DNA of 39,084 bases from Burkholderiales bacterium (GCA_035539675.1 DATLHW010000117.1:1-39084); one strand, 5' to 3'. Numbered from the stretch's first letter, positions 8,818-24,846 are shown. Notes: generated from the sequence alone by a model not told the origin. A program made the numbers and translations.

Positions 8818-9232
8818 GCCGAACGCTCCGTGTCGAATTTCCAAAAATTTGAACTACGAGACTTCCGAATAATCATATTGAGCGATCCGAGATTGAGCGT
8901 TGACCCAAGCAGAACATAAGCATCGCCGTCTCGATATTCATATCACTCCACGGATTTTCCAGAGGCCGCCTCCATTCATTTGGACATCTTGCCCTGCATG
9001 CAACATAAACCAATCGCGGCATCTGCATTAAATTGCCCTGTATTGATTAAAGTCCGGGCGAATTTGCTTTAGTCCGCACACATCGACTTTGCAAGCTCGA
9101 TAAAATCGCCACTAACTTTGTTACGCCCCTAATTTTTCGCCCTCAACGTCACCAGAGATCGACTGCAAACATGCAGGAAACCGTCACCATCATGATGACT
9201 CTCATAAGGCGTTTCCGATAATAAACGTCATT

Positions 9233-9904
9233 TCAAAATACTTCCTTCGCGCTCATGGCGCCGGGAAACCCTTCTACTGTGGTGGTCGCCGTATGAGGCG
9301 AGGTCGGCGCAGCATCCCATCGCACATTAACGCGGCCGCGCTCCCCTTGAAGAGCGCTAATGGAATCTTCATCCGCCCCCTTCGCCAACACTTTCCGCGG
9401 AGCCGCCTTGTGAATGGCTAACGGAGGAGTCCTATCCTTGATGCGTGGAACCTCTACGGAGGCCTTTATCACTCGTCGGACATACCCATTGCGAAAGCCA
9501 CGTTGAAAATCACCGGTGTTGTACGCCGATAGCGCCTTTAATAGTGCGGTGCGAGAATCATCCGTTTCTTTAAGAGCTCGACTGTAATTCTCAGAAAGAA
9601 TACGGGCGCCCGCTCGGAGGTTAAGACAGGTATCGAAGGCCGTCATTGCGTCGAGCCCGAGACGGGAAAAATGAACTGAGTTTATCTGCATTAGACCCAG
9701 ATCAACCGAATACCCTCGTGCAATGAGCCACCGCGCCCAACCTGCCGCCTCCCCCTTTGAAGCGGGCTGACGAGCAAGCCGCTTTCCGCCATTTACATTA
9801 ATTGCAAAGGGATTAAAGCCACTTTCAGTATGAATCACCGCATGCATTGTGGAAGGCGCCACTTGCGGAGCACATTCTTCGATAATGGGTGTCCAATCCA
9901 TCAT
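9233..9904 (-). CDS. virB1: Lytic transglycosylase, VirB1/TrbN-like (paralog 2)
   Basis: 223 aa. N-terminus MMDWTPIIEECAPQVAPSTMHAVIHTESGFNPFAINVNGG carries the catalytic E of TESGF; also GLMQIN and AYNTG motifs. Clearly alignable with the upstream paralog. No obvious signal peptide. Confidence 0.85.
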   Translation of the reverse strand: MMDWTPIIEECAPQVAPSTMHAVIHTESGFNPFAINVNGGKRLARQPASKGEAAGWARWLIARGYSVDLGLMQINSVHFSRLGLDAMTAFDTCLNLRAGARILSENYSRALKETDDSRTALLKALSAYNTGDFQRGFRNGYVRRVIKASVEVPRIKDRTPPLAIHKAAPRKVLAKGADEDSISALQGERGRVNVRWDAAPTSPHTATTTVEGFPGAMSAKEVF

Positions 9905-9907
9905 TTT

Positions 9908-10465
9908 TTATCCCGCTCCCGACTTTCGCTTTTTTTCCGAGGGCGGACGTCGATCGGCATCGGCGAGAATTAAGGGTGGGGCGTCGCTCTCTTCAATTCT
10001 ATTCAAGGGAACAGGCTGACGATGCTTCACAACTTTGGCGACGTAACCATTTCGAAAACCACGCTCAAAATTACCGGTGTTGTAAGCCGAAAGGGCCTTC
10101 AATAAGGCGCTTTGAGGGGTTCCTCCTTCCCGGAGCGCCCTTCTATAACTTTCTGTAAGAATGCGCGCACCGGCAGCTAAGTTTCGACATGGATCGAACA
10201 CGGAGGCGGCGTTAAGCCCAAGTCTACGTAAATTGTTTGAATTGATCTGCATCAATCCCATATCGACAGAGTATCCGCGGGAGATGAGCCAATGTGACCA
10301 AGCGGCGGCCTCGTGCAACGTGCGAGGCTTTCGTGCAAGCTTGGCGCCGCCATTTATATTGATCGCGAGCGGATTAAAACCACTCTCCGTGCGAATAATC
10401 GCTTGCATCGTGGAGGGTGCCACCTGAGGGGCGCATTCCCGAATCATGGGCGTCCAATCGATCAT
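9908..10465 (-). CDS. virB1: Lytic transglycosylase, VirB1/TrbN-like (paralog 1)
   Basis: 185 aa. MIDWTPMIRECAPQVAPSTMQAIIRTESGFNPLAININGG...GLMQINS...LSAYNTGNF. In-frame stops lie just upstream, so no longer N-terminus or leader peptide is possible. Confidence 0.85.
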   Translation of the reverse strand: MIDWTPMIRECAPQVAPSTMQAIIRTESGFNPLAININGGAKLARKPRTLHEAAAWSHWLISRGYSVDMGLMQINSNNLRRLGLNAASVFDPCRNLAAGARILTESYRRALREGGTPQSALLKALSAYNTGNFERGFRNGYVAKVVKHRQPVPLNRIEESDAPPLILADADRRPPSEKKRKSGAG

Positions 10466-10620
10466 TGTCTATTTATCGTTAAAAATAACCAATTAAATTG
10501 ATCGCTCATGCGGATTACTAAACCGCCAGCGCCATGACATACACCCCGCCACACGTCACAATCGTTCGGGAATTTCACTGTTACGATTCCCGATATGTCG
10601 ACATGGACAATTAGGACTTG

Positions 10621-10636
10621 AGCAGCAACCGTGCCA
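10621..10636 (-). promoter_or_regulatory. Putative sigma-54 (-24/-12) promoter upstream of the virB1 pair
   Basis: The minus strand reads TGGCACGGTTGCTGCT (consensus TGGCACG-N4-TTGCW, with correct GG-N10-GC spacing). It lies about 155 nt upstream of the ATG at 10465. The palindrome CTTGCAAG (10722-10729) lies about 90 bp further upstream. Confidence 0.5.
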
Positions 10637-10774
10637 AGAACACTTCCCGCTCCTTTGCGCCCTTTACCTTAGAGCGATTGTCATGAACTTATTTAATGGG
10701 TTAAACGTATAAACTTTCGCGCTTGCAAGAATGATGGCGTGACGACAGTGCATTTATGGAAGAAACAAGTTTCA

Positions 10775-12781
10775 CTATGGCTGTCCCTCTATCGCCATCT
10801 CGGCGCCTTTCCCCTCGCCTTCCGCAACCGCGATTTCAATTTCGGTTGACTGATCTGTTTCGGCTCCGCTCGCCAAATTAGCAAACGGATTGCGTATCCG
10901 ATCGCTACTTGATGGGCATTGGACTTTTGCTCGTTGGGAAAAAACCGGGTCCATGAAGTAAAGAATTTGTTTCCCATAAATCGGCGTTTGTCCCGCCATA
11001 AAAATCAACATATCCCCCGCTTCCACCACATTGCCTTGAGCGTCTTTTCGGGCGCCGGGCAATCGCATGACTTCATCGGCCGTTAATAGGGACCGTTGAG
11101 TCTCAGCAGTGGAAACTGAAACCTGGCTAAGAATGCCAAACGTACTACCCGAGTATGAGTTGTTTTGCTTAACAATTGTGGTGCTGCCAGTCATTTTGGA
11201 AAGCATTTCCGCCGTCTCAACTTTGTTAGGCGCATACGCGATACGAAGGTGGCAATTCGAGAAAATACTCTCATCTTTTCCGTAAGCGGTGTGCAGCTGT
11301 GAGATATCCTGAATAATGAGATAAGCTTTTAGACCATAGCCGGCGATAAACGCCAAGGACTCTTCAAAGATATCGAGCTTACCCAAACTAGGAAACTCAT
11401 CGATCAACAATAGTAGTCGATGCTTATATGAGGCTACGCTACGCCCATCTTTGAACTCCATTTTCTCTACAAGCGAACGAATAACCTGATTCACCACTAG
11501 CCGAATCAAAGGCTTCAGTCTATCTTTATCGGAGGGCGGCACCACTAGATAGAGAGAGACGGGTCTCTCATCATTCATCAAGTCACTAATAATGAACTCG
11601 CTGCAAGCCGTATTTCTAGCGACGATAGGATCACGATAAAGAGTCAAATAGGACACGGCGGTAGAAACAACGCTCGACATTTCCTCTTCTGCTTTATTAA
11701 GCATGTCTCGTGCTACGGCGGCGACCACGGGGTGCGTAAAGGTCGGATTGCCTTCGGTATCTACCCAGCCTCGGACACCTTCCATATCATGATCGGTGTT
11801 GAGCATATAATTCAGGCTGTCTTGAATTGTTCTCGCCGGATTACTCAGGAAGCCGATCACGCCACAAAGAGACTTGTCCGACTCCGCATACAAAACATGC
11901 AGCGCTGTGCCGACCAGTAGAGCATGACCAGTCTTCTGCCAGTGGTCGGCTAACCCCTTGCCCTCTGGATCGGCGATCATGTTCATAATGTTTTGCACGT
12001 CGGCCACTTCTTTATCCGTATAGACCCGCACCAAATCCATCGGGTTGTAGCGAATGCTTGATCCATCAATTGCAGTGGGTTCAAACTTGAGCACATGATT
12101 GTTTGCTTCTTTCTGCCGCCAGCCAGCGGTCAGCGCCCAGTTTTCCCCCTTGATGTCATACACAACCACGCTGTGGGGCCACGAAAGCAATGTGGGAAGC
12201 ACCAAACCAACACCCTTACCAGAACGGGTCGGCGCGAACGCCATGATGTGTTCTGGCCCGTCATGCCGCAGGTAGTGGACCTTTCCGGTCTTGGGGTGCT
12301 TCCACGCGCCGACGTATACGCCAACGCCTGTCCCGATTAAACCCGTTCGCTGTACCTCCTCAGGACTTGCCCAGTGCGCCGAGCCATGAATATGCTGGCC
12401 GCCCTTATCCATACTTTTTAAGGTCTTATTAAAGGTGTAGAAGATTAAAGCGACGGTCCCGGTGAAACTTGCGACAAACAACCATAACACCTGAGAAAGT
12501 GCGCTTTGTACGGTTGGATTCTTTAATTTTCCAAAACGCCCATACCATTCGACCCAGTCGAAGATCATGTAGAACTTAAATCCTCCTACACTAAACAGAG
12601 GAGCTCCTAGCGCATCTTGATAACCAAATCGGAAAGCAAGATATTGGGTGCACAACAAACTCAAAGCCATTAAAAAACAAATACCGCCGCCAATACCTTT
12701 CCATAAGATGCCCCCTGGATTCCCCGGTTGATCGGGGACATCGTACAAAGGGGTCTTTAGCGAATCGCTATATTTATCCAT
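10775..12781 (-). CDS. virD4: Type IV coupling protein VirD4/TraG
   Basis: 668 aa. N-terminal TM segments, Walker A APTRSGKGVGLVLPT, and TraG/VirD4-type motifs (LLLIDEFPSLGKL, YGKDES). Confidence 0.95.
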   Translation of the reverse strand: MDKYSDSLKTPLYDVPDQPGNPGGILWKGIGGGICFLMALSLLCTQYLAFRFGYQDALGAPLFSVGGFKFYMIFDWVEWYGRFGKLKNPTVQSALSQVLWLFVASFTGTVALIFYTFNKTLKSMDKGGQHIHGSAHWASPEEVQRTGLIGTGVGVYVGAWKHPKTGKVHYLRHDGPEHIMAFAPTRSGKGVGLVLPTLLSWPHSVVVYDIKGENWALTAGWRQKEANNHVLKFEPTAIDGSSIRYNPMDLVRVYTDKEVADVQNIMNMIADPEGKGLADHWQKTGHALLVGTALHVLYAESDKSLCGVIGFLSNPARTIQDSLNYMLNTDHDMEGVRGWVDTEGNPTFTHPVVAAVARDMLNKAEEEMSSVVSTAVSYLTLYRDPIVARNTACSEFIISDLMNDERPVSLYLVVPPSDKDRLKPLIRLVVNQVIRSLVEKMEFKDGRSVASYKHRLLLLIDEFPSLGKLDIFEESLAFIAGYGLKAYLIIQDISQLHTAYGKDESIFSNCHLRIAYAPNKVETAEMLSKMTGSTTIVKQNNSYSGSTFGILSQVSVSTAETQRSLLTADEVMRLPGARKDAQGNVVEAGDMLIFMAGQTPIYGKQILYFMDPVFSQRAKVQCPSSSDRIRNPFANLASGAETDQSTEIEIAVAEGEGKGAEMAIEGQP

Positions 12782-12817
12782 AATTTCATCTCACCAAAAA
12801 ACGTTCATCGGGCCGAA

Positions 12818-13687
12818 TTACCGGCCGAGCCGACCATGACCAGGCGTTAAGCCCGCCTGACCAATAGCGCGGGCTTCCACCGCCTTTCCCTTCACAACCA
12901 CATGCAATCGCTCACCGACTTCCGCCTCCAACAGATCGCAAGCAATACGCTCGATCTCGATAATTAAAAGCATGCGTTTTCTCGCCTCGAGTTTGAGGTA
13001 GATTTTCTTATCATCGGCATAACATATCTCACCAGTAAAGTTCGTTAGACCATCTGAAGTCATGACCACGAAATCATCAGTGCCCAATTGGCTGGCGAGA
13101 ATTTCTCGAGTGTCCGGTTTAGCGCCCGTCAAAGGCCAAATGATTTCGCCGTCATGAATCGAAACCAGAGTGATTTCATAGTTCCCGCCGTCACTCCCAT
13201 CATTGATCCAGACCTTTGGAGTCAGCGTTTTGCCTTTGCCTATATTTGGATTATCAAATTCCTGAACGGCGACCGCAGAATCCGCGAACGCCAAGCCATT
13301 AATTACCGGCGCCAAAGCGGAATATATAGCGCCGTCATACTCCTTCACGTCCGTCTGCGCGCGGACCGTAACAGGTCGCGGGTGGATGACGCCCATAGCC
13401 TTTCGGACTGTTACAACATAGTCCACTAACTGCCCCCTTCTATTGGTGACTTTAAGCTCTGGAGCCAGACTTTGGACGCCGACCTCCACGCTATTGAATC
13501 GTTGCGTCGCGATCACCAAATGATCGTCGTCAATGGAGCCAATAATGGTTGGATAACGGGCAGAGCGAACGACGCCGTCGTAAATTTTCTCATCTTCCTG
13601 AGCAATCAGCACTAGTTCGCCACGCCCAGTGTGATGAACACCAGGCGTGGAAAGCTGTTGACGGGCGCCAAGATCATCCAGAGACAT
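12818..13687 (-). CDS. Hypothetical protein with two YDG/MBG-like adhesin-type repeats and a unique C-terminal domain; no signal peptide
   Basis: 289 aa. ATG preceded by GAGGGAG, tightly packed between virB10 and virD4. Repeat 2 reads IHPRPVTVRAQTDVKEYDGAIYSALAPVINGLAFADSAVAVQEFDNPNIGKGKTLTPKVWINDGSDGGNYEITLVSIHDGEI. A degenerate repeat 1 has EKIYDGVV. The fold assignment is from memory of the repeat pattern and is not HMM-verified. Confidence 0.7.
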   Translation of the reverse strand: MSLDDLGARQQLSTPGVHHTGRGELVLIAQEDEKIYDGVVRSARYPTIIGSIDDDHLVIATQRFNSVEVGVQSLAPELKVTNRRGQLVDYVVTVRKAMGVIHPRPVTVRAQTDVKEYDGAIYSALAPVINGLAFADSAVAVQEFDNPNIGKGKTLTPKVWINDGSDGGNYEITLVSIHDGEIIWPLTGAKPDTREILASQLGTDDFVVMTSDGLTNFTGEICYADDKKIYLKLEARKRMLLIIEIERIACDLLEAEVGERLHVVVKGKAVEARAIGQAGLTPGHGRLGR

Positions 13688-13712
13688 TTTCGTTTAAGTC
13701 TCCCTCATTAAC

Positions 13713-14972
13713 TCATGGCTGATAACCGCTCGGAAACACCAAGTCCTTGTTAACCATAACCGTGAACTTGGATCCCTTGCGAATCTCAATCGTCGGTTGC
13801 ACGCCCAAATTACGCTTAGCGATCTCAATGCCAAGTTGACTCATTTGCTGTCCCACCGCAGCGCCGACAACCTGTCTATTGCTCAGTGAGGCCTCATTGG
13901 AAATGGTCTCCTGGGGTTGCGAAAGCTGAAAAGCTGCTGAGAATATCGAGGTCAGAAGCGCAAAACCAAATGTCCGCACATAGTGATTATTGACGCGATC
14001 GGCAATGCCCGCAGTACCCGCTTTGTCATGCCCCGCCATACCGCTCAAATCCATGCTCGTCGCATTAGGAAAAATAATGCGATTCCACACGACCAGTAAT
14101 CGCGATTGTCCAAACGTTATAGAAGACTGATATTGCCCGAAGAGCTTGCTTCCCTGCGGGATAAGCAAGTGCTGCCCTGTGGCGCTATCAAATATGTTTT
14201 GCGAAACCTGCCCGACAATCTCGCCCGGAAGATCTGAATTAATCTGCGTAATCATCACACCGGGAATAACGGTGCCGGTTTTGATTTCAAACTCGTTAAT
14301 AGGGGGATTTAGTTGGACTATCTGGAAATGAGCGCCCTTGGATCGCCCACCTCGTTCCAGAAACGCTTCTTTTTGGGATTGGCGATTGGGGTCATCTTTA
14401 TTTACAGCTGGGTCTTCGCGAACTGCCGCCGCCTGTCTATTGGCGCTTTGATTTGAGATTGTCTCTCTCGGCGCCATCTCCTCTTCGACTTTCGCCTGAC
14501 GCTCGGCAAATTTAATGAGTTCGGTGTCGGCCATAAACGCATTCATTTTCTGCTCTGGAGGCCGCGCAGCCGATGTGGATGTAGATGTGGAGGTGGATGT
14601 GGCTGCTGGAAGAGCGCCAGCAGAGCCTGGATCCGCTAAGGTCGGCACATTCTGTGTGGAAGCCGCATTGGGAGGCGGGGCGCTCTCCCGTGGCATCCTC
14701 GGCGGCTCTGCCGGGAGAAGCAATGGCTGGTCAGGAACATCACTCGTTAAAGCGCTTGCGGTCCCTGTTGCTGGCGTAAACGTCTGAGGCTTGTCAGGGG
14801 CGACATTCTTGGTCATGTCCTTTTGTGGCGTCGATAGATTGGAAAGGATAAAAACAAAAACGCCTACCATTACCGCCACAGCGATCATGACGGCCTTTTT
14901 GTTTAAGCGGGCGCTGATCTTAGGGGTGCCACGCAACTCCAAACCATCGGGAGATTCGATTTTCGTCGTCAT
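13713..14972 (-). CDS. virB10: VirB10/TrbI
   Basis: 419 aa. N-terminal TM segment, Pro-rich region, a (TS)n tract, and a conserved C-terminal barrel region (GTVIPGVMITQINSDLPG...LLIPQGSKLFGQY...RLLVVWNRIIFPN). Confidence 0.95.
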   Translation of the reverse strand: MTTKIESPDGLELRGTPKISARLNKKAVMIAVAVMVGVFVFILSNLSTPQKDMTKNVAPDKPQTFTPATGTASALTSDVPDQPLLLPAEPPRMPRESAPPPNAASTQNVPTLADPGSAGALPAATSTSTSTSTSAARPPEQKMNAFMADTELIKFAERQAKVEEEMAPRETISNQSANRQAAAVREDPAVNKDDPNRQSQKEAFLERGGRSKGAHFQIVQLNPPINEFEIKTGTVIPGVMITQINSDLPGEIVGQVSQNIFDSATGQHLLIPQGSKLFGQYQSSITFGQSRLLVVWNRIIFPNATSMDLSGMAGHDKAGTAGIADRVNNHYVRTFGFALLTSIFSAAFQLSQPQETISNEASLSNRQVVGAAVGQQMSQLGIEIAKRNLGVQPTIEIRKGSKFTVMVNKDLVFPSGYQP

Positions 14973-14975
14973 GGC

Positions 14976-16130
14976 TTACTCCGATCCATCCAGGCACCTT
15001 CCGAACCAACCACGTTTGGCGCATTTCTTTTCGCGGGTAACCTCGATACGCTGTTGCCCAACACCTGTGCCGGAAATCAATGCAAATCTATCAGTCATTC
15101 TATCAATAGTGTAGATATTGCCTTTCAATCGATAATTCACCATCTGCTCGCTACCATCAGGATCAATCAAAATCAGAACGGGCGCTTCCTCGACAGGTAC
15201 GTTATCGTTCATTGAAATATATGTGCGGGCGCCATCGTCCATTACGCGCAATGGCTTGAACTTTGGTTTTCCTCTGACGACCTCGACTTTGTAATCAAAA
15301 TTAATGCGTTCAACCGCCACATTGGGAAAGTCGGATTGAGGTGCGGTGGATTGCGAGCTACGCTCGGACTTGGCGGGTTGCGCCATCATCTTTTGCCACG
15401 TCTGATTACTATTGTCTGGATACTCAAACGCAACACGGGCAAGATATTTATCTCTGCTGGAAACGAGTCGTAAATGATAGGTGCGGCGATCAGTCGGAAC
15501 CATTAAATTGGTATCAAGGCCCGGCTCCGTCGGCTTGATGATGAGATGAGTAATTCTTTGATCTCCTTCGGCTGAAACCGCGGGTGCGATCTTCCATCTC
15601 ACGGAGTCGCCAATATGCGGTGCGCCTTGAATCGTTTCCCCAGGCTCCAGCTCGATATCGCAAACCCTGAGCGGAGCACAAATAATGGTCGGCGCAGAGT
15701 CACCGAAAGTAAAAACCATACGTCCATCTTTTCCTTGCGCTGGATAAGCATGGGGATTTTCAGCCCACTCTTGCGATTGACGCACAGCCAACTTCGCTGG
15801 CTCGCTTACCGTGGGCTCCGGGGTCGTAACAATAACCTGAACCGGCGCTTCTTTTATCTGGATTTCCGGTTTTAATTGCGCTTCGCTTTTTAAATCGGCT
15901 TCGCTGATACCAAGACATGAAACGGGGTCAGTGCAGGGAGCTCCGCCAGGACCGACTGAAGTCGGCATCACGGTATCTGCAGGTTTTGCAAGTATTGGCG
16001 GAACGTTCGCATTTTCCACAGCTGATGCAGGAGCGCCTCCTTGCGCACCGCCCTGACTACTATCCTGCGCTAGGGCGGCGCCGGAAGCCGCCAGGCAAGA
16101 AATCAACAAGACCAGTTTCTTGATTCGCAT
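14976..16130 (-). CDS. virB9: VirB9/TrbG with an extended Ala/Gly/Pro-rich N-terminal region
   Basis: The ORF track starts at a TTG (16166). The ATG at 16130 follows GGGGAG and gives MRIKKLVLLISCLAASGAALA (signal peptide). Core motifs VFTFGDSAPTIICAPLRVCDIELEPGE...GDSVRW. Confidence 0.9.
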   Translation of the reverse strand: MRIKKLVLLISCLAASGAALAQDSSQGGAQGGAPASAVENANVPPILAKPADTVMPTSVGPGGAPCTDPVSCLGISEADLKSEAQLKPEIQIKEAPVQVIVTTPEPTVSEPAKLAVRQSQEWAENPHAYPAQGKDGRMVFTFGDSAPTIICAPLRVCDIELEPGETIQGAPHIGDSVRWKIAPAVSAEGDQRITHLIIKPTEPGLDTNLMVPTDRRTYHLRLVSSRDKYLARVAFEYPDNSNQTWQKMMAQPAKSERSSQSTAPQSDFPNVAVERINFDYKVEVVRGKPKFKPLRVMDDGARTYISMNDNVPVEEAPVLILIDPDGSEQMVNYRLKGNIYTIDRMTDRFALISGTGVGQQRIEVTREKKCAKRGWFGRCLDGSE

Positions 16131-16149
16131 TTTCGGCTCCCCGTGAAGT

Positions 16150-16923
16150 TTAAAGTTGTTGAGCAAAGTTCAAGTCGGTTATATAAATCCCTAGCGGATT
16201 CACAATAATTTGGCGTTCGTCCGTGGGAGGTGTAATTCCAATAACAAAAGAAGCCTTGAACCGAAGTTTATTTTTCACCTCCCCTTTCAAATCGCGGTAA
16301 GTCTCGGCCCATTCCACTTGCCAGCTTTTGTCAGAGACCGCCAATATGGCTGAAAGCTCCACGGAGACAGTTCCAGTTTGGAGCCGGACGAACGGATTGT
16401 TTTCTTCGAAGTATTCATTCGCCTTCTTATGGGCTGGCGTATTAATAGGCAACATGGAATAAAGTCGGGTAACGGCATCCTTTTGCGCAACGCGGTCTAC
16501 CGTCACCGTTCGCCAATCCTGCACAAAGCGTCCTAAAAACGATTTAACAACCCTCGAATCCAAAGCGGTCGCCTTGTCGCCAGGCCCCACTGCGATAGCA
16601 GCGCCAAACTTATCGACCTGAACAACATATGGAACAATCTTATTTTGGGCGCCGATATAGCCAACGCCTATAACTGCGGCGAATGCAATCAGCGCACAGA
16701 GAAAGGCGATGTACCGCCAATTACGAGCTTGACTAATGTAGTCCCCATAACGCTCATTCCACTCGCGCCGGGCCTCGATGTAAGGATTTTCGACTTGCTG
16801 CGGCTTGCCACGCGCGGAAGCGGGCTTCTCCGCCTCCCTGGGAGCCGAAATATCTTCAATATCTTCGGATGAAATCATCGGCTCCGGATTGGCTTTCTTG
16901 AAAAACATGAGGAGGCTTTTCAT
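16150..16923 (-). CDS. virB8: VirB8/TrbF
   Basis: 257 aa. NPYIEARREWNERYGD, then one TM segment (WRYIAFLCALIAFAAVIGVGYI) and a periplasmic NTF2-like region, as is typical of VirB8/TrbF. Confidence 0.9.
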   Translation of the reverse strand: MKSLLMFFKKANPEPMISSEDIEDISAPREAEKPASARGKPQQVENPYIEARREWNERYGDYISQARNWRYIAFLCALIAFAAVIGVGYIGAQNKIVPYVVQVDKFGAAIAVGPGDKATALDSRVVKSFLGRFVQDWRTVTVDRVAQKDAVTRLYSMLPINTPAHKKANEYFEENNPFVRLQTGTVSVELSAILAVSDKSWQVEWAETYRDLKGEVKNKLRFKASFVIGITPPTDERQIIVNPLGIYITDLNFAQQL

Positions 16924-17080
16924 TTCCTGGATTCCTTTGCGTCGTTAACGTTTTGTTAACTGCTAGTTTTGCCCGGTTTAAACCAACGGGCATCTGCCGC
17001 ATTCACGTTGGTTGGGGCGACTTCGCCCACTCAATAAAACACCTTCGCCATCACCATCAGAATCGCCACACTTATCTAAT

Positions 17081-18469
17081 TCAAGAGCCTTCTACTGAAC
17101 CACCCTTCTTTCCTTCCGCCGCAGCCAGTTTCGCCTTTACATCTCGGTTTGCTCTATCTGCGGTACCCGGCTTCTTACTGGAGCCCGTGCCCATCGGATT
17201 CTTTGGATCGCCATCTTTCCCGCCAGCCTTAAATCCCGCGCTCCCGCCTTGTCCTCGCGCAGCATTCATCGCTGTACGCGCCATCTGCCCCCCCAATGCC
17301 TTGGCGAAAACACCAGCGGAATTCTGGCCTGTGGCAGCGCCGAGCTTCCGACTGTTCTGCGCAAGCTTGAACGCATGGTAACCAGCCTGCCCTACCGCTG
17401 CTGCTGCCCTACCCGGCATTGCCGCAATACCTCCCGCCGTTTTCATCCCCTGCCCGACACTTTGCGCGGAACTCACCATCGTTCCACCGGAGAAACCGAT
17501 ACCGCCACTCATTAATGCGCTGGCCATTTCAGGCGCTCTAATCGAGAGCAATACCGTCACCACAGCCACACCCATGATTTGAAATAACTCCATGTACTCG
17601 AATACGAATTTATCCCCCATCTCCATCACGAGGTTCGTCGTCATTCCGAGGATGACTAAAATCACCAGTAGCCTGAGCCCAACGGTCAAGGCGTATTTGA
17701 AATACTTGGTGACATACTCGTTTGTCCAGCTAGAACCACCAAAACACAGAAAAATGGCGCCAGCAGCAAGCAAAAGGAAGGCCTCGATACGTAAGCACAG
17801 CAACTGCGCCGCTGCAACGAAATACGCTACGGCGATTACCAATGTCGCGATCAACGCAACGCAAACCTCCCCGAGTTTTCCAAGTACGTCGAAACCTGTA
17901 GGGGCCTTGCTCCAAACAAGCGCAATAATGGCCAGGCCTGTTGCGATGACCCCATCCACCGTCAAAGGAGGCGCGCTCGTCGCATGCTCACCCGCATACT
18001 CGAAACTTTTTACGACTATGGGAATCCATTCCGGACCTTTATCTAACAAAAGAAAGAAAAAACCGATGTACATGAGCTTTTTAATTAAGTCCGCCGTAAA
18101 ACTGCTCATCTCGTCTTTTTCCAATGCCCAGAGGCATGCAGCCCATGCCAATTCAAGTGTCGCTAACAGGAAAAAGGTGTTCTCACCCAACGCCGCCAAC
18201 TTACCGCGCCAATCGTCACCCTTTGCGTTAGCCGCATCGACAAAAGGATCTAGCAAGGTAAAAGAGGGACCAGTTACGCTGCCAATGGTGACGCCAGGGG
18301 CGGCATAAACCACATCAAGTAAAAAGAAGGAGGCAACCGCCAATAGGATGCTCCACATCAAAGAGCGCTCTTTCGAGCCGCTACTTCGCGCTATGGCGTA
18401 TCGCATCGGTGATTGCCCCATTCTCCAGTCCCTTGCCTTGTTACCTGAAGTTTTTGTCGTTTGGCTCAT
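17081..18469 (-). CDS. virB6: VirB6/TrbL (paralog 2, shorter C-terminal tail)
   Basis: 462 aa, polytopic. The N-terminal ~330 aa align clearly with the upstream paralog (AAPGVTIG.VTGPSFTL.DPFV..., LELAWAACLW, LLDKGPEWIPI). The C-terminal module YHAFKLAQNS...KALGGQMAR...NPMGTGSSKKPG..DRANR.VKAKL is shared. Confidence 0.85.
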   Translation of the reverse strand: MSQTTKTSGNKARDWRMGQSPMRYAIARSSGSKERSLMWSILLAVASFFLLDVVYAAPGVTIGSVTGPSFTLLDPFVDAANAKGDDWRGKLAALGENTFFLLATLELAWAACLWALEKDEMSSFTADLIKKLMYIGFFFLLLDKGPEWIPIVVKSFEYAGEHATSAPPLTVDGVIATGLAIIALVWSKAPTGFDVLGKLGEVCVALIATLVIAVAYFVAAAQLLCLRIEAFLLLAAGAIFLCFGGSSWTNEYVTKYFKYALTVGLRLLVILVILGMTTNLVMEMGDKFVFEYMELFQIMGVAVVTVLLSIRAPEMASALMSGGIGFSGGTMVSSAQSVGQGMKTAGGIAAMPGRAAAAVGQAGYHAFKLAQNSRKLGAATGQNSAGVFAKALGGQMARTAMNAARGQGGSAGFKAGGKDGDPKNPMGTGSSKKPGTADRANRDVKAKLAAAEGKKGGSVEGS

Positions 18470-18495
18470 GGTGAACAGTTCGCGTCCTGCAACGA

Positions 18496-20352
18496 CTACT
18501 TATTACCCGAGTCATCGGGTCCGCCGCGGGAGCCTTTACCTAGCGAAGAAGGCGGGAGAGGTCCCCTCCCCGGAGATGGACCAGAACCGCCGCTAGAAGG
18601 AGGGGCAACACTTTTCGCTACGTCTTTCGCTATGCCGCCTCCCGCGAGTTCCGATGCGCCACCCGTTAAGCCTGCCGCCATGACCTTAGTTGCAACTTTA
18701 TCTGCAACTTTATCTGCAACCTTATCTACAACCTTATCTACAACCTTATCCGCGGCCTGTCTTAAGCGCCCGCGAGAACTGCCGGATTCGCCCCCACTAT
18801 CACCTCCGCCCTTCACCGCATCTTTCGCTAAGTTCTGCGCCATATCTTTCCCTGCGCCTTCCTTCACGGCGCTTTGCGCTAAGCCTTCGCCAGATTTTTT
18901 GGAATCTCCCGATCCACCTCCCGATCCACCTCCCGATCCACCTCCCGATCCACCTCCCGATCCACCTCCCGATCCACCTCCCGATCCGCCTTTAGACCCA
19001 CCGCCACTAATCTCGCCGCCTTTTTCAGCTCTTGCCGCTTCAAGCTTCGCCTTGACGAGTCTGTTGGCTCTGTCGATCCCCCCAGGCTTCTGACTAGAGC
19101 CCGTACCCATCGGATTCTTGCTGTTGCCACCGTCCGCATTCTTGTAAGCCCTGAATCCGTGACTTGTATCCTTTCCTCTGGCCACGTTCAGCGCGCTACG
19201 CGCTATCTGCCCCCCCAAAGCTTTGCTAAAGGTTCCCACAGCGCTTCCACCCGTTTCTTTAGCCAGCGCGCTACTATTCTGCGCCAGCTTCATTGCGTGA
19301 TATCCGCCCTGCGCTAAAGCTGCACCTCCCTTAACCGGCATTGCGGCGACAGACATTGCTCCAGTCGCCACACCCGCAGCGCTTTTCGCGGAACTCACGA
19401 AGCTGCCACCCGAGAAACCGATACCGCCTTGCATCAACGCGCTTGCCATCTCAGGCGCCTTAACCGCCATCATCGCGGTCATTATGGCCACCGCCATAAT
19501 CTGGAATAGCTCCTGGAACTCGAATACAAAGGTAGCCGCGACACTGTCAACAAAACCGTAGGTAAGACCTAGGATGAGCAGAAGCACCAACAAACGTACG
19601 CCTACCGTAATCGCGTATGTGAAGTACTTGGTGACGTATTCGTTGGTCCATCGGGAACCGCCAAACGCAAGGAAAATTGCGCCAGCGGCAAGTAGGACAA
19701 AGGACTCTAATCTCAAGGCGAGAAGTTGAGCAGCGGCGATAACATATCCAACAACGACAATAACCGTCACCAGAATCGCCACGAGTATTTCAGGAATATT
19801 AGCGAAGACATCACCGATGTCCCAACCGCTGGTTTCATCCCAAATGAGCTTAACTATCGCGAAACTTGTCGCGATGACGCTATCCACAGTGAGTGGAGGA
19901 GCGCCTGTCGCCTCCGTCCCAGCATACTCGAAGCTATCGACGATGATTGGAATCCATTCCGGTCCTTTATCCAGCAACATATAAAAGAAACCGATAAACA
20001 TCATTTTCTGAATTAGCTCAGCGGTAAAACTGCTCATGTTGTCTTTTTCTATTACCCACAAACATGCCGCCCAAGCCAGTTCGATAGTGGCCAATATAAA
20101 GAATGTATCTCGACCCAAATCCGCAATCTTGCCGCGAAAGGTATCGCCTTGACCTTTAGCGATAGTTACAAACGGATCGAACAATGTGAACGAGGGTCCC
20201 GTCACGTCCCCAATAGTCACTCCAGGAGCAGCATAAGCAAAATTCACGAACAGAAAGTAGGACGCCAATGCTAGGAGCGTATTCCACCACGCGCCACCAT
20301 ATGACCACGTGGGCCTTTTTGCAGTTGAGTAATGCTTTGACATTGACGCCAT
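18496..20352 (-). CDS. virB6: VirB6/TrbL (paralog 1) with a long Gly/Ser-rich low-complexity C-terminal extension
   Basis: 618 aa. ATG preceded by GAGGAA, and the start overlaps the virB4 stop region. A TrbL-like polytopic N-terminal half is followed by (GGSG)n, (DKV[VA])n and Pro/Gly/Ser-rich tail segments. Confidence 0.85.
   Translation of the reverse strand: MASMSKHYSTAKRPTWSYGGAWWNTLLALASYFLFVNFAYAAPGVTIGDVTGPSFTLFDPFVTIAKGQGDTFRGKIADLGRDTFFILATIELAWAACLWVIEKDNMSSFTAELIQKMMFIGFFYMLLDKGPEWIPIIVDSFEYAGTEATGAPPLTVDSVIATSFAIVKLIWDETSGWDIGDVFANIPEILVAILVTVIVVVGYVIAAAQLLALRLESFVLLAAGAIFLAFGGSRWTNEYVTKYFTYAITVGVRLLVLLLILGLTYGFVDSVAATFVFEFQELFQIMAVAIMTAMMAVKAPEMASALMQGGIGFSGGSFVSSAKSAAGVATGAMSVAAMPVKGGAALAQGGYHAMKLAQNSSALAKETGGSAVGTFSKALGGQIARSALNVARGKDTSHGFRAYKNADGGNSKNPMGTGSSQKPGGIDRANRLVKAKLEAARAEKGGEISGGGSKGGSGGGSGGGSGGGSGGGSGGGSGGGSGDSKKSGEGLAQSAVKEGAGKDMAQNLAKDAVKGGGDSGGESGSSRGRLRQAADKVVDKVVDKVADKVADKVATKVMAAGLTGGASELAGGGIAKDVAKSVAPPSSGGSGPSPGRGPLPPSSLGKGSRGGPDDSGNK
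18694..18753. repeat. In-frame 12-bp tandem repeat (5 units) inside virB6 paralog 1
   Basis: AACTTTATCTGC x2, AACCTTATCTAC x2, AACCTTATCCGC x1. On the minus strand these encode the DKVVDKVVDKVADKVADKV tract. Confidence 0.9.
18906..18989. repeat. In-frame 12-bp tandem repeat (7 units) inside virB6 paralog 1
   Basis: CTCCCGATCCAC x6 plus CTCCCGATCCGC x1. On the minus strand these encode (GGSG)n. Confidence 0.9.
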
Positions 20353-20355
20353 ATC

Positions 20356-22827
20356 CTATTCCTCTACTTCATGTGCTGGTTCCAATCCTAGCCATCTGTC
20401 CGCCCAACCGTTAAGCCCCCGATGTCTCAACCAGTAGGCGGGCCATTCGACTCCATGCTCTTTCATAAGCTTCCGCGCAGTACGAAGGTCTTCCTGTCCA
20501 CTGGCGCCAACAAATGAAAGCACCAACGGTCCGAACCCATAAGAGAAGAGTCGACGCCCAAGCGGGGATTTGTAGTAGTACTGTCGTTTGACCTGCGCAT
20601 GCGCAAGAATTTCGACTTCCCTATCATTCAGCCCGATCGCGTCATACATTCCTCTAGACGATGGATCTTGCGCTTCCGGATTAGGTAGCAAAATTTTGGT
20701 CGGACAGCTCGCCAAAATTACATCGCGAATTGGGCTTGCCATCACATCGGCAAGCTCCTGCGTCGCCATAAGTACAGCGCCGTTTTTCTTCCGCCACGTT
20801 TTAAGCCATTCCCGAACTTTTTCTCGGAACAATGGATGAGAAAGCATGAGCCAGCACTCGTCTAACGGCACCAATGTCGGTCGCCCATCGAGCCGCTTCT
20901 CAACTTGTCGGAAAAGATATAAAAGCACGGGCACAACGTTCTTCTCGCCCAGGTTCATCAAGTGCTCCATTTCGAACACCTGAAAGTTTCCGTCCCGCAA
21001 GCTATCTTCCTCGGCGTCTAATAAGCTGCCCATTGGACCGGCAAGCGTGTAGTGCAATAGAGCTTGACGCAATTCTTCATCTTGCAATTCGGAAACGAAT
21101 TCAGTTAGCGTCCGTCTTGGCGAATGGGTAAGCCGCATAATGGCCTCATACACCATTTGACGTAGCGCCGGGGTAACCGTCATGCCTTGCAGCGTCAACA
21201 TGACTTCAATCCATTCAGCGGCCCACGCCTGATCCTCTTGCGTATCAATGTTCTTCAGCGGACAAAACGCCAGCTCGCTATTTTCACCTCCTATGTCGTA
21301 ATAGTTACCGCCGCACGCGTTACAAAGGATAAGCGAGGAATAGCCTTTATCGAATGCAAACACCTGTGCGTTAGGGTATCGGAAGTGTTGCGCCATCATG
21401 AATGTAAGCGCGGTCGACTTACCGCCACCGGTCTTACCAATCATCAAGGTATGACCAACGTCTCCAACGTGCAGGCTGAAACGAAACGGCGCCGACCCCG
21501 TAGTCGCGGCATACAAGAGCGGTGGACTATTCGGCGGATAAAAAGGGCAAGGGTTGTGTTCAAGTCCAGACCATACTGCGGTAATCGGCAGCATGTCTGC
21601 CAGGTTTAACGTGTGCAAGATCGGCCGTCGGATATTGGGATATCCGTGGGCTGGAATAGTGCCAAGAAATGCTTCAACCGCGTTAATGTCCTCGATCCGC
21701 GCCCCGAAGCCATAATTAAGAATTTGTTTGCGCGTTTCCTGCGCGAGTTCGGAGAGCCTCTTCGGATCCTCGCTCATTAGAACGATGCACGCGGTGTAGT
21801 AACCGAACTTTACTTGGTTACTCTCCGCCTCCCCCATCGCTTGCTCTACGTCCTGGGTCATTTGCAGAGCATCGAGATCGACAGCGCCAGTAGAGGTGTT
21901 GAAGAATTGATCTTTGAAGCCTCGCTGCTTCTGTTGCCAGCGTCGGCGAACGCCGGTTAGCACGGACCGCGCTTGGTGCGCATCGAGAAAGATGAAACGA
22001 GTTGACCAGCGATACTCAAAATGAAGCTCATCGAGTATGTGGAGGATTCCAGGATAGCTGTCCGCTGGAAAGCCATCGATCGCGACAACTTTGATAAATT
22101 TTTCTCCTACCTTCGGGGCAATGCCGCCGAGGAATGGATGTGCTCCTATAACCGCATCGAGATACATAGGTATCGAAGGCAGTTTCACGGGGCGCAAGAT
22201 TCCACTCACACAAAACTCTAGATACTGTAATAATTCATCCAATACGTAGGGTCGGCCGAACTCGTCTTCCCCCTTGATGGTGCGCATTCGCTTCATTGGA
22301 AAAGTGATACCGAGAACCGACTCCATATCGCTAATCTGGCGTCTGAATGTCTCAAGAATTCGGTTTGCGAGTCCTTCCGCCGATTTGTCGCGGTGTTCGT
22401 CGTCGTAGATAAAATCCGCCATTTTTCCCGCGGCGCGGAAAGGGGGAAGGTAGGTAAGCGTTAATGCGTAAACAGTTTCAAATTGCGTGCCTTCCGACTC
22501 GTACTGCTCCCGGCGCTCCATATCCATTAACCAGGACGTTCGATCCGGAAAAGCGCCTTCGTCGGGATACGTGGTCGATACTCTTCGCATCGCGTCACAA
22601 TTGAGCAACCATCCACTACCCAAGTTTAAAAGCATCTGATTCAGTCGCGCCGAGATCCCTGCGAGTTCGAGATGCGTGGAACTTGCCATATCGTCGCCAC
22701 GAAAATACCAAGCCGCAGTCAGGCTACCATCCTTATTCAATAAGATGCCGTCATCCACCATCATCCCGAAGTTCAGCAGATCCGGCAGCCCTCTCGCTCG
22801 GTCGCGAAACTGTTTGAGCTTGATCAT
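20356..22827 (-). CDS. virB4: VirB4/TrbE ATPase
   Basis: 823 aa. Walker A MIGKTGGGKST, Walker B region TLVPLDECW, and the typical VirB4/CagE layout. Confidence 0.95.
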   Translation of the reverse strand: MIKLKQFRDRARGLPDLLNFGMMVDDGILLNKDGSLTAAWYFRGDDMASSTHLELAGISARLNQMLLNLGSGWLLNCDAMRRVSTTYPDEGAFPDRTSWLMDMERREQYESEGTQFETVYALTLTYLPPFRAAGKMADFIYDDEHRDKSAEGLANRILETFRRQISDMESVLGITFPMKRMRTIKGEDEFGRPYVLDELLQYLEFCVSGILRPVKLPSIPMYLDAVIGAHPFLGGIAPKVGEKFIKVVAIDGFPADSYPGILHILDELHFEYRWSTRFIFLDAHQARSVLTGVRRRWQQKQRGFKDQFFNTSTGAVDLDALQMTQDVEQAMGEAESNQVKFGYYTACIVLMSEDPKRLSELAQETRKQILNYGFGARIEDINAVEAFLGTIPAHGYPNIRRPILHTLNLADMLPITAVWSGLEHNPCPFYPPNSPPLLYAATTGSAPFRFSLHVGDVGHTLMIGKTGGGKSTALTFMMAQHFRYPNAQVFAFDKGYSSLILCNACGGNYYDIGGENSELAFCPLKNIDTQEDQAWAAEWIEVMLTLQGMTVTPALRQMVYEAIMRLTHSPRRTLTEFVSELQDEELRQALLHYTLAGPMGSLLDAEEDSLRDGNFQVFEMEHLMNLGEKNVVPVLLYLFRQVEKRLDGRPTLVPLDECWLMLSHPLFREKVREWLKTWRKKNGAVLMATQELADVMASPIRDVILASCPTKILLPNPEAQDPSSRGMYDAIGLNDREVEILAHAQVKRQYYYKSPLGRRLFSYGFGPLVLSFVGASGQEDLRTARKLMKEHGVEWPAYWLRHRGLNGWADRWLGLEPAHEVEE

Positions 22828-22831
22828 GTGA

Positions 22832-23152
22832 CTACCCCTTCGTCGTTGGCCTCGGTAGCGGAGCTAGCTGCGCATGAACGCAACCCTTCGCGCTGTAGTA
22901 CGCACGATAGCGAATGTGTCGTTGATAAATTTTTGACATCATCGTATCGGCTTTAGCCATCTGCGTTAGCGACCAGAATGATGCGCTCCAGAACACGAAC
23001 GCCAGAAGCAACGATAGCGGTCGAAACTTCGCACTGAAAATAATGATCGCCGCGACCAATACAGCAAACAGTAGCAGGCCCCGTTCCGCCCCCATCAGAA
23101 GCTGGGGGCGGTTCAGCGATCGGTGGATAGGCATGAATCGTGGCTCATCCAT
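22832..23152 (-). CDS. virB3: VirB3/TrbD
   Basis: 106 aa. MDEPRFMPIHRSLNRPQLLMGAERGLLLFAVLVAAIIIF plus a second TM segment. AAGGAGG lies 6 nt upstream of the ATG. Confidence 0.9.
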   Translation of the reverse strand: MDEPRFMPIHRSLNRPQLLMGAERGLLLFAVLVAAIIIFSAKFRPLSLLLAFVFWSASFWSLTQMAKADTMMSKIYQRHIRYRAYYSAKGCVHAQLAPLPRPTTKG

Positions 23153-23165
23153 GAAACGCCTCCTT

Positions 23166-23207
23166 TTTTGCTAAAGCCAAGTCGTCTTTTGCTAAAGCCC
23201 AGTCGTC
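23166..23207. repeat. 21-bp tandem duplication in the virB2-virB3 spacer
   Basis: TTTTGCTAAAGCCAAGTCGTC (23166-23186) and TTTTGCTAAAGCCCAGTCGTC (23187-23207), 20/21 identical. They lie immediately upstream, on the minus strand, of the virB3 Shine-Dalgarno sequence. Confidence 0.85.
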
Positions 23208-23238
23208 ATTCGCTGCTAGGCTCAATCAACTTCATCAA

Positions 23239-23523
23239 TTAAAAGAGATCGATGAATGACTGCGCCAACAACAGAACGGCCAAGGCTAGTACGATCGTAC
23301 AAATACGCTTCGCGAATTCCGAAAGTTCTCCACCGAACGCCAGCATGGCGCCGGCAACCGCTAATGCAATCACGCCAATCGCCCGTGCGACGTTTCCAGT
23401 CAATGACGTTTTAATCTGATTCAGCGGTCCTTCCCACGGCATTGCAAAAGCCGGTTCGCATAAAAACAAAAGTCCGATAAATAGGACAAACGCTCCTGCG
23501 TTTAATTTGTTGGTTATCTTCAT
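23239..23523 (-). CDS. virB2: VirB2/TrbC pilin
   Basis: The ORF track starts at 23586. The ATG at 23523 follows AGGGAGGAAAAACACC and gives MKITNKLNAGAFVLFIGLLFLCEPAFA|MPWEGPLNQIKTSLTGNVARAIGVIALAVAGAMLAFGG, a typical TrbC/VirB2 leader and core. Confidence 0.85.
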   Translation of the reverse strand: MKITNKLNAGAFVLFIGLLFLCEPAFAMPWEGPLNQIKTSLTGNVARAIGVIALAVAGAMLAFGGELSEFAKRICTIVLALAVLLLAQSFIDLF

Positions 23524-23582
23524 GGTGTTTTTCCTCCCTAAAAAGTTGAAATACGCTACGTGAAAAAGTTGAAACGTGTGAA

Positions 23583-24635
23583 TCAATGCCTTATTACTGG
23601 TTTAAGAATGAAGCTTCCCCCTTTGTAACCCTGAACTAACATCATCTCGCTAACTCGCCGGCCAGGGCTTTCGCCGATACGTTCAATGAACAGAATTAAG
23701 TTGATGGCTTCCGCGATCATTGCGCCAATGGCGTCATCCGATAAGTTTCGAGCTTCAGGCGCCTCATAGATAAGTTGCCTAACGCGGGTAAGTCCGGCCT
23801 CTGCGGAGTTTGCGTGAACTGTGGCGCATCCGCCTGGATGACCGGTGTTCCAGCTCTTTAGTAAAGTCAGCGCCTCGCCGCCGCGAACCTCACCCACGAC
23901 AATACGATCAGGGCGCAGACGCATGGTCGCGCGTAACAGTCTTTGCATATTTGTGTGTTCATTCGCGCGCAGCAAAACACTATTCGCAAGGGAAATCTGT
24001 AACTCGACCGTGTCTTCAATCGCGACCAGCCGATCATCAGGACATAATTTCGCTATCTCCGCGAGCACTGCATTCACCAATGTGGTCTTACCACTACCGG
24101 TTCCGCCAACCACGAGGATGTTGTTACGATTGCGGACCCCTTGACGAATTACGTCAACAGGATGGGACATGTTTTCAAATCCTGCATGGCTGTCCCCGTG
24201 TCCGATCGCATACCCTGTCATCGCCGGCGTGATAATTCCCGCTTTGACATAATCATCCAGCGTGAAAATGTTGATCGCCTTTTTACGAATCGCGAATACC
24301 GGTCTGCGTACGATAGGATGAATAAGTCCTTCGAGACGCGATCCATCCAGAGGAAATTCGCCTTCTAGGATGGGATTTTCATAAGTGATGGTCGTATTGA
24401 GCATGCTGGCGCAAGTGGCCAACATGCTTTCCGCCGATGAAGCGCTCATATCGAAACCGCTGTACTTCATTCCTTCCCCTAAAACATCCAACCATACCTT
24501 TCCGTCCTGGTTGAGCATGACCTCGATTACCTTGGGATTGTTTAAAGCGGTCACCATTTCGTGTCCGCATTCCCGTGAAAGCTTTTCCTCAAGACGTTTT
24601 CGCAAGACTTCTGTTTGACTATTCGTCGTGCTCAT
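23583..24635 (-). CDS. virB11: VirB11/TrbB ATPase
   Basis: 350 aa. Walker A VVGGTGSGKTT, Asp and His boxes (RPDRIVVGEVRG, GHPGGCATVHAN). First gene of the operon, as trbB is in Trb-type loci. Confidence 0.95.
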   Translation of the reverse strand: MSTTNSQTEVLRKRLEEKLSRECGHEMVTALNNPKVIEVMLNQDGKVWLDVLGEGMKYSGFDMSASSAESMLATCASMLNTTITYENPILEGEFPLDGSRLEGLIHPIVRRPVFAIRKKAINIFTLDDYVKAGIITPAMTGYAIGHGDSHAGFENMSHPVDVIRQGVRNRNNILVVGGTGSGKTTLVNAVLAEIAKLCPDDRLVAIEDTVELQISLANSVLLRANEHTNMQRLLRATMRLRPDRIVVGEVRGGEALTLLKSWNTGHPGGCATVHANSAEAGLTRVRQLIYEAPEARNLSDDAIGAMIAEAINLILFIERIGESPGRRVSEMMLVQGYKGGSFILKPVIRH

Positions 24636-24748
24636 CAGGCGTCCACCAATTTTGGAGTTGGAATAAAGGCGCTTCTTTAGTTCTTAAATTTTTCGCTAAG
24701 CTCCATGAATTCCGCGTGTTGTGCGAATCATGGTGACGTTTACCTTAG

Positions 24749-24764
24749 AGCACGACCCGTGCCA
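24749..24764 (-). promoter_or_regulatory. Putative sigma-54 (-24/-12) promoter of the T4SS operon
   Basis: The minus strand reads TGGCACGGGTCGTGCT (consensus TGGCACG-N4-TTGCW, GG-N10-GC spacing, a single G-for-T mismatch in the -12 box). It lies about 115 nt upstream of the virB11 ATG. Confidence 0.6.
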
Positions 24765-24846
24765 TCGCCCGCAAAACAAGTAAGTTGTTGTTTTAAATAA
24801 ATGCAGATGCACTCTTTCGGCTCGGCAGTCGATATGCGCTTGCAGG

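Follow-up and report, generated by a model that had tools for sequence, protein, structure and literature searches.

Contig DATLHW010000117.1 of the Burkholderiales bacterium assembly GCA_035539675.1 carries, on its minus strand between positions 9233 and 24635, a Trb-lineage type IV secretion system (T4SS) that in our view is probably functional and chromosomally fixed, and in which a former conjugation machine has probably come to translocate proteins in a VirD4-dependent manner. This reading draws on gene content and gene neighbourhood. The stretch of DNA that was analysed (the window; 39,084 nucleotides) is one whole contig (C117, 39 kb) of a 4.33-Mb metagenome-assembled genome (MAG), which comprises 582 contigs and is 86% complete. 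Comparison with related loci shows, at the level of gene arrangement, that the system belongs to a monophyletic clade, which has lost trbJ/virB5 together with the relaxosome, has moved virD4 to a position after trbI, and holds variable genes in the two slots that flank virD4.

As delimited by Pfam and NCBIfam matches, the T4SS is a single gene array, which reads along the minus strand TrbB-C-D-E, two TrbL, TrbF-G-I, a YDG-repeat protein, VirD4 and two transglycosylases. The core components VirB2, B3, B6, B8, B9, B10 and B11 were all matched, in the Trb order B-C-D-E-L-L-F-G-I. An intact Walker A motif is present in all three ATPases, namely trbB/virB11 (23583..24635, 350 aa; PF00437, 1e-35; Walker A GGTGSGKTT; 64-67% identity to clade orthologs), trbE/virB4 (20356..22827, 823 aa; PF03135 and PF19044) and the coupling protein virD4/traG (10775..12781, 668 aa; PF02534, 2.5e-111; 65-72% identity to clade orthologs). 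TrbE scores 961 bits against the TrbE model NF010404, whose cut-off is 810, and is the sole VirB4 gene in the MAG. The remaining channel genes are trbC/virB2 for the pilin (23239..23586; PF04956, 2.7e-18), which likely starts at the internal ATG at 23523 and would then have 94 aa, compared with 94-108 aa in orthologs; trbD/virB3 (22832..23152, 106 aa; PF05101, 4e-11); trbL/virB6 paralog 1 (18496..20352, 618 aa; TIGR02783, 3.6e-57) and the short-tailed paralog 2 (17081..18469, 462 aa; TIGR02783, 1.3e-52); trbF/virB8 (16150..16923, 257 aa; PF04335, 5e-42); trbG/virB9 (14976..16166; PF03524, 7.5e-53), with a probable start at the ATG at 16130 (384 aa); and trbI/virB10 (13713..14972, 419 aa; PF03743, 1e-60). 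Every gene of the array is full length by comparison with its orthologs, and no frameshifts were seen. Judged by its sequence, the locus is thus a Trb, or P-type (mating-pair-formation class MPF_T), T4SS in which a recognisable TrbJ is missing.

How firm is the absence of TrbJ? In conjugative relatives trbJ occupies the position that is filled here by TrbL paralog 1, and because trbE and the first trbL are separated by 3 nt (20353-20355), there is no room for a gene between them. The Pfam VirB5 model is weak on true TrbJ proteins, and the TrbJ model TIGR02780 was therefore calibrated first on the trbJ-slot genes of two conjugative relatives, L014 and L015, which it recognised at 1.4e-27 and 9.8e-47 and which have no convincing Pfam match. 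In six-frame searches of the whole MAG and of three relatives' genomes, TIGR02780 then returned nothing at E<=1. PF07996 was negative for VirB5 in the MAG and gave only sub-threshold, unlinked matches in two relatives, and tblastn with two real TrbJ proteins found only matches with E>1 in the MAG. No TrbJ/VirB5 came to light in the closed Chitinimonas arctica genome either. A TrbJ-like part fused to TrbL was also considered and rejected: the N-terminal periplasmic segment of TrbL measures some 45 aa and can be aligned with ordinary TrbL, and its C-terminal tail is of low complexity, as in conjugative TrbL. A first-pass annotation of the window had described a Trb-ordered T4SS with an extra TrbL in the TrbJ slot, which the Pfam and NCBIfam matches and the genome-wide negative result with TIGR02780 bear out, as PF02534 does for the coupling protein that it had named. 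It had also stated that virB4 and virB6 overlap, which they do not; its conclusion that no gene fits between them holds nonetheless.

The absence of TrbH/VirB7 must be read differently. Because trbG and trbI are directly adjacent, there is no trbH slot, and no credible lipoprotein signal was detected among all open reading frames (ORFs) of at least 25 aa in 9000-25300, as expected from the earlier statement that the locus has no small lipoprotein gene. The same annotation had counted this loss among the distinguishing traits of the system, which cannot be upheld: TrbH is likewise absent from L014 and L015, where trbG and trbI are adjacent too, and its absence is therefore an ancestral state of the wider branch, which does not set the present system apart. 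The possibility that TrbG acts as its own lipoprotein, through the Cys in 'LLISC', was discarded, because this Cys is missing in 2/5 clade orthologs and the preceding hydrophobic stretch amounts to six residues. In Chitinimonas and Chitinivorax, a lipoprotein of 223-236 aa (lipobox LAAC or LTGC; L010:21380-22051, L048:15447-16157, L050:4076-4750) is encoded after the transglycosylase; it is 36% identical between the two genera, co-occurs with an alpha/beta-hydrolase-like cargo protein and is possibly an immunity protein. As a stand-in for VirB7 or VirB5 it cannot account for the present locus, since it has no homolog in this MAG.

An initial scan for related loci had returned distant systems only (TrbI 36-45% identity), and the informative relatives came from a search with the TrbE protein. 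Across 5.8 billion proteins, this search yielded about 60 clusters at 71-83% identity, and the named carriers of a close TrbE are Chitinimonas arctica, Chitinivorax sp. B and Parachitinimonas caeni, along with MAGs assigned to Burkholderiales, Ramlibacter and Steroidobacteraceae. Gene neighbourhoods were read in C. arctica (two copies), Chitinivorax sp. B, a second Chitinimonas genome, two other genomes or metagenome contigs, a pair of metagenome contigs with 83-84% identity and one relative at 64%. The layout without TrbJ and without relaxase recurs in ten loci with TrbE identities of 64-83%. In all readable neighbourhoods of this clade trbL comes right after trbE and trbI right after trbG, and virD4 lies downstream of trbI in every one whose contig extends that far. 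The loci are flanked by housekeeping genes (such as mutL, miaA and lptFG) and are devoid of integrases. On the closed chromosome of C. arctica (CP041730, ~3.337-3.366 Mb; L010 and L048), two complete TrbJ-less systems stand in tandem about 14 kb apart, with TrbE 75% and 74% identical to that of the window and each with its own VirD4, lipase-like cargo, transglycosylase and lipoprotein. An insertion sequence (DDE_3) and a leaderless LRR_6 protein are found there just upstream of trbB.

In a tree of TrbE, that is, of VirB4, all TrbJ-less loci form one clade nested among TrbJ-bearing conjugative systems. L014 (62% identity) has TrbJ, a small ORF and TrbL, followed by a relaxase and ArdC, and L015 (53% identity) reads TraG-TrbB-...-TrbJ-TrbL-...-SLT-TraF-type peptidase. 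Among 400 sampled genomes from the same bacterial order, 29 others have TrbE at E<=1e-100; in only three of them, at 75-76% identity, does trbL directly follow trbE, and in most same-order genomes with TrbE at 40-51% a trbJ-like gene comes next to it. Two features of TrbG also set the clade apart in an alignment of four clade and two conjugative orthologs: a Pro/Ala-rich N-terminal extension of about 100 aa (15800-16130 in the window), which often includes a CxxxxxC pair, and at the C-terminus (14976-15020 in the window) the conserved motif C-x-KRGW-x-G-x-C-(W)-D, both of which are missing from the conjugative relatives. The ten-locus clade, a relative at 84% identity that keeps all genes and sister lineages that keep TrbJ and the relaxase thus agree with the first-pass view of a functionally diverged rather than a decaying machine, as does the lack of frameshifts.

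Elsewhere in the order, a VirB8-like gene directly follows trbE with neither trbJ nor trbL in between (L025-L027, L041-L045), and the trbE-trbF interval has evidently been remodelled repeatedly in these bacteria. Gammaproteobacterial MAGs, including Candidatus Aquirickettsiella and Francisellaceae (L002, L003, L004), have a minimal Trb-like gene set on the chromosome that is only distantly related (TrbE 34-37%). There the order is a GH18-like gene, TrbB-C-D-E, a protein of about 350 aa without Pfam match in the TrbL position, and TrbF-G-I; the sets have housekeeping flanks, and neither VirD4 nor TrbJ is visible in them.

No plasmid carries this type of system as far as TrbE is concerned: among the 72,556 plasmids of PLSDB none has a TrbE above 60% identity, and the best matches are conjugative plasmids with an annotated trbJ, the nearest being an Acidovorax plasmid at 59.8%. 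Six-frame searches with the relaxase families PF03432, PF08751, PF03389, PF07514 and PF01076 yielded no match in either the MAG or the closed 5.3-Mb genome of C. arctica, MOBC, MOBT and MOBB not having been searched for, and the relaxase of the sister clade has no homolog in either genome. Within the window, no large ORF contained an integrase or relaxase domain, and no tRNA gene was found across its 39 kb; domain and tRNA searches thus agree with what had been noted from the sequence at first sight. Regarding the hallmarks of a self-transmissible element, neither a linked relaxase, nor an integrase, nor a plasmid match above 60% was found, and oriT was not searched for.

What do these loci carry beside the channel genes? 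The slots between trbI and virD4 and between virD4 and the transglycosylase hold unrelated, variable genes in the different clade members. They encode an alpha/beta-hydrolase-like family of 343-447 aa, labelled phospholipase-like in precomputed Pfam matches, a 760-aa protein with a TcdA/TcdB-type glycosyltransferase domain, proteins of unknown function with 975-1030 aa, and several orphans of 290-470 aa. These proteins have no signal peptides, and their tails are basic and look disordered. Over the last 25 residues, cargo proteins have a mean net charge of +4.0, against +0.73 for a background of 1850 long ORFs of this MAG (Mann-Whitney p 1.4e-6), and the motif G-[RK]-[GSLT] occurs within the last 12 residues of 7/12 cargo proteins versus 4.4% of the background; both motif and statistic were defined after the tails had been viewed, and the ORFs of one MAG serve here as background for proteins of other genomes. 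The comparison is suggestive of a charged-tail signal in the cargo proteins. The first-pass annotation had left the choice between effector delivery, DNA release or uptake, and antagonism; the leaderless, basic-tailed neighbours of virD4 favour the first of these.

In the window, the slot between trbI and virD4 holds the gene for a leaderless protein of 289 aa (12818..13687; PF18657, 3e-10). Two YDG adhesin-type repeats are followed in it by a private C-terminal domain, in which KKIYLKLEARKR is invariant, and by an Arg-rich tail (GHGRLGR); an R-x-R-x-x-R end is found in 5/5 aligned members of its family. Homologs at 84% and 43% identity, the two members with readable context, occupy the same slot. 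The repeats match thousands of giant repeat proteins of 1000-6500 aa, which we take to be surface adhesins. Because the gene is flanked by 25 and 36 nt only, there is no room for an immunity gene beside it. Neither the YDG protein nor the cargo of the relatives matched XVIPCD in Pfam scans, no shared C-terminal domain was detected among them, and no PDB chain gave a meaningful sequence match to the YDG protein. The protein is predicted, with low confidence, to be mainly beta and unlike the helical fold of VirB5. We regard it as the candidate T4SS substrate here. The VirD4 of the window is extended at its C-terminus by an acidic tail of about 35 aa (10775-10880), and such a tail is confined to the two YDG-bearing lineages (the window and L051:3569-5578): the last 45 residues of VirD4 have a net charge of -6 and -15 in these, versus 0 to +3 in other clade members. 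This distribution hints that the acidic tail of VirD4 and the Arg-rich tail of the YDG protein may be a co-evolved, charge-matched pair of receptor and cargo.

Two further components have been duplicated. Between them, the two TrbL share 62% identity over 429 aa; with the single TrbL of the other systems in the clade they share 35-48% (35-45% in the case of paralog 2), and paralog 1 ends in a low-complexity tail of about 230 aa made of Gly/Ser and (VADK)n. Likewise, the two transglycosylases, transglycosylase 1 (9908..10465, 185 aa; PF01464, 2.6e-19; NF010438, 2.5e-36) and transglycosylase 2 (9233..9904, 223 aa, of which about 70 form a C-terminal extension; PF01464, 2e-18), share 64% identity. 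The first-pass annotation had rightly seen two such genes but had labelled them TrbN, whereas they score best as VirB1-type. Elsewhere in the clade, each system has a single TrbL (530-652 aa) and no more than one transglycosylase, and by this comparison the duplications are specific to the lineage and not clade-wide. The metagenome contig with the YDG protein at 84% identity keeps the full set: TrbL of 636 and 459 aa, the YDG protein, VirD4, SLT of 179 and 224 aa, NtrC, a 900-aa kinase and LysR. Since the duplications are conserved in this relative and the paralogs have diverged, the duplications are old enough for divergence to have set in, and both copies have been maintained. The VirB1-type transglycosylases begin at their catalytic core and have no signal peptide, as do the clade orthologs and the one of the conjugative L015.

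Downstream of the T4SS lie the genes for an NtrC-type sigma-54 activator with receiver, AAA+ and HTH_8 domains (7450..8844, minus strand; PF00158, 7.8e-64) and for a histidine kinase of 900 aa with LacI-type ligand-binding and GAF domains in its Pfam matches (4373..7075, minus strand). Both also adjoin the T4SS in the 84% relative. A regex scan for sigma-54 sites returned six of comparable quality in the whole window, and two of these fall in the two operon leaders: TGGCACGGGTCGTGCT (24749..24764, minus strand; 9/11 consensus positions), located 129 nt upstream of trbB, and TGGCACGGTTGCTGCT (10621..10636, minus strand; 9/11 positions), upstream of the transglycosylase pair. The activator is a probable regulator of these two putative promoters, and the kinase is probably its sensor partner. 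Sigma-54 control was not retained as a trait of the whole clade, a good -24/-12 element before trbB being found in this window only. Beside the T4SS of C. arctica, a receiver protein (184 aa) and a sigma-54 AAA+/HTH protein (312 aa), called as two overlapping genes (L010:915-2293), may represent a frameshifted NtrC-type regulator. An ORF of 134 aa at 24793-25197 in the window matches no family and overlaps the sigma-54 promoter and activator-site region and upstream palindromes; it was treated as spurious and is probably not a real gene.

On its opposite flank, the array is followed by a monooxygenase-MBOAT operon (25413-29570) and a fumarylacetoacetase gene; gspD, gspE and gspF of type II secretion are encoded on the opposite strand at 33385-38619, about 9 kb from the T4SS. 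The G+C content of the T4SS block is 48-55% in 1-kb windows, and that of the genome is 53.8%. A genome of the same genus (G014) is without this T4SS, and the system is therefore accessory; the comparison had been attempted for an empty site, and this genome also has no copy of the flanking monooxygenase gene.

How might such a machine work? We envision that VirD4 would recognise leaderless substrates by their positively charged C-terminal tails and pass them on to a channel powered by TrbB and TrbE. In this window, the substrate would be the 289-aa YDG protein, whose Arg-rich tail may pair with the acidic tail of VirD4. In the R388 structure, VirB5 reportedly caps the VirB6 pentamer and nucleates the pilus. 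A machine without VirB5 would build its periplasmic stalk from VirB6 alone, here possibly from two paralogs, and a tip-capped classical conjugative pilus seems unlikely, although the pilin gene is kept. Expression in this lineage would be turned on through the two sigma-54 promoters by the adjacent pair of kinase and NtrC-type activator. A more far-reaching version of this model, in which a whole P-type clade has dispensed with VirB5, forms its stalk from VirB6 only (here as a hetero-oligomer of two paralogs), injects proteins, has VirD4 and cargo co-evolving and thereby represents a free-living counterpart of the rickettsial rvh system, appears conceivable to us but on the whole rather doubtful.

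Several observations weigh against a protein translocator. Apart from the manner in which the tail statistic was defined and its background chosen, the AlphaFold2 models of the YDG protein are poor, with a predicted local distance difference test (pLDDT) score of 36 from 3 sequences and 48 from 5 sequences. This protein is the single visible candidate substrate in the window; an enzymatic domain cannot be recognised in it, there is no immunity gene beside it, and it could instead be a structural or adhesive part. The sigma-54 element before trbB has no equivalent in other clade members. Finally, Chitinivorax has a MOBQ gene on another contig and in another relative a MOBH gene lies some 1 Mb away from the T4SS, and a relaxase of the present organism could lie in unassembled DNA, given that the MAG is fragmented and 86% complete. 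Since the relaxases of the relatives are unlinked or absent, the system is not consistently linked to any relaxase. These latter points bear on the notion that the machine still moves DNA, either by serving a relaxase and oriT encoded elsewhere, on an integrative mobilisable element or a small plasmid, or by releasing DNA, as the gonococcal island system does into the medium. The retention of VirD4, VirB11, VirB4 and the pilin would fit such a role, as would the incompleteness of the MAG and the presence of MOBQ or MOBH elsewhere in two relatives' genomes. However, these relaxases are unlinked and belong to types that are not the usual partners of Trb machines. Moreover, the closed C. arctica genome, with two copies of the system, has none of the five relaxase families and not the relaxase of the sister clade either; the clade was found on no plasmid, its loci lie between housekeeping genes without integrases, and TrbJ, which many Gram-negative T4SSs need for substrate transfer (PMC12857230), is gone. 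On balance, we deem a continued role in DNA transfer or release distinctly unlikely.

Alternatively, the system may mainly be a surface or adhesion organelle comparable to Bartonella Trw. It would display the YDG protein, with its repeats borrowed from giant adhesins, in place of the VirB5 tip adhesin and would not inject effectors. The matches of the repeats to the thousands of 1000-6500-aa repeat proteins point in this direction, and at least three lineages keep the protein in this slot, at identities as low as 43%, without enzymatic domain or immunity gene and in the company of a retained pilin. VirB5 is a Sec-exported protein, whereas the YDG protein has no signal peptide; its predicted fold is mostly beta and not VirB5-like helical, albeit at low confidence, and enzyme-like proteins sit in the same slots of other clade members. 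VirD4, moreover, is kept here and is absent from Trw (PMC12857230). We therefore consider an adhesion organelle unlikely. It would also be conceivable that the locus is the intact but functionless remnant of an integrated conjugative element, given that relaxase, TrbJ and integrase are missing and that the system is dispensable, as is implied by the genome of the same genus without it. Against this speak the intact ATPase motifs and reading frames, the recurrence of the same architecture in ten loci with TrbE diverged down to 64%, the retention of duplicates at 62-64% identity, the dedicated regulators and promoters that are conserved with the locus, and the two full copies kept in C. arctica, which together make a mere remnant very improbable. 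A VirD4-dependent protein translocator thus remains the reading that we favour.

The Trb systems of IncP and Ti plasmids and of Tn4371-type integrative conjugative elements have the same gene families in the same order, B-C-D-E-(J)-L-F-G-I. Compared with them, the present system is devoid of trbJ, relaxase, TraF-type peptidase and integrase; its virD4 lies after trbI and not upstream of trbB, its virD4 neighbours are variable and leaderless, its TrbG has the extension and the Cys motif, and it is exclusively chromosomal. Chromosomal location and VirD4-dependent delivery of proteins via their C-terminal regions, here deduced from the genes, are shared with the X-T4SS of Xanthomonadales and with Agrobacterium VirB/D4, whose substrates have a positively charged, Arg-rich tail. 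Those systems, however, are VirB-ordered and keep VirB5 and VirB7, whereas the present one has neither VirB7, nor XVIPCD domains as in the X-T4SS, nor an immunity gene beside its YDG protein. In the X-T4SS, VirB7 carries an N0 domain, and the genes of the XVIPCD effectors have immunity genes next to them.

Loss of VirB5 as such is not without precedent, and VirB5-less systems include F, Ptl, the gonococcal genetic island (GGI) and ComB (PMC12857230). Bordetella Ptl and Helicobacter ComB are minimised P-type systems in which VirD4 is missing as well, and ComB also does without VirB11 (PMC12857230). Both act on a periplasmic toxin or on incoming DNA, while the present system keeps VirD4 and VirB11, which points to cytoplasmic substrates. 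A functional parallel is rvh of Rickettsiales, which differs from the archetype only by the absence of VirB5, keeps VirD4 and VirB11, and has a duplicated and extended VirB6 (PMC2653234; PMC12857230). It is nevertheless a VirB-type system spread over five islets, with five VirB6, duplicated VirB4, VirB8 and VirB9, and VirB7, in obligate intracellular bacteria, whereas the present system is Trb-type by its best-scoring models, organised in one operon, with a single TrbE and two VirB6 in one lineage, in free-living betaproteobacteria. The resemblance must therefore be convergent and functional only.

According to current structural models, a VirB5 pentamer sits atop VirB6 and forms part of the stalk as well as the seed of the pilus (PMC12857230), and a system that has lost this component bears on how P-type channels are built. 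The VirB5-less minimised systems known so far either lack VirD4 too, as Ptl and ComB do, or belong to obligately intracellular bacteria that are hard to manipulate, as rvh does. The clade delineated here, of which our full-text literature searches found no description, keeps VirD4, VirB11 and a pilin without VirB5. Among its carriers are betaproteobacteria of fresh water and soil that can be cultivated, Chitinimonas arctica and Chitinivorax sp. B for example, and the clade may thus offer a tractable system for the study of P-type channel assembly and substrate delivery without VirB5. It would also capture a conjugation machine on its way to becoming an effector injector, with TrbJ and the relaxase still present in sister lineages, and the variable genes flanking virD4 would provide a list of candidate effectors with a simple tail signal. 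If this holds true, free-living, cultivable and non-pathogenic bacteria would have arrived independently at a counterpart of the rickettsial rvh solution.

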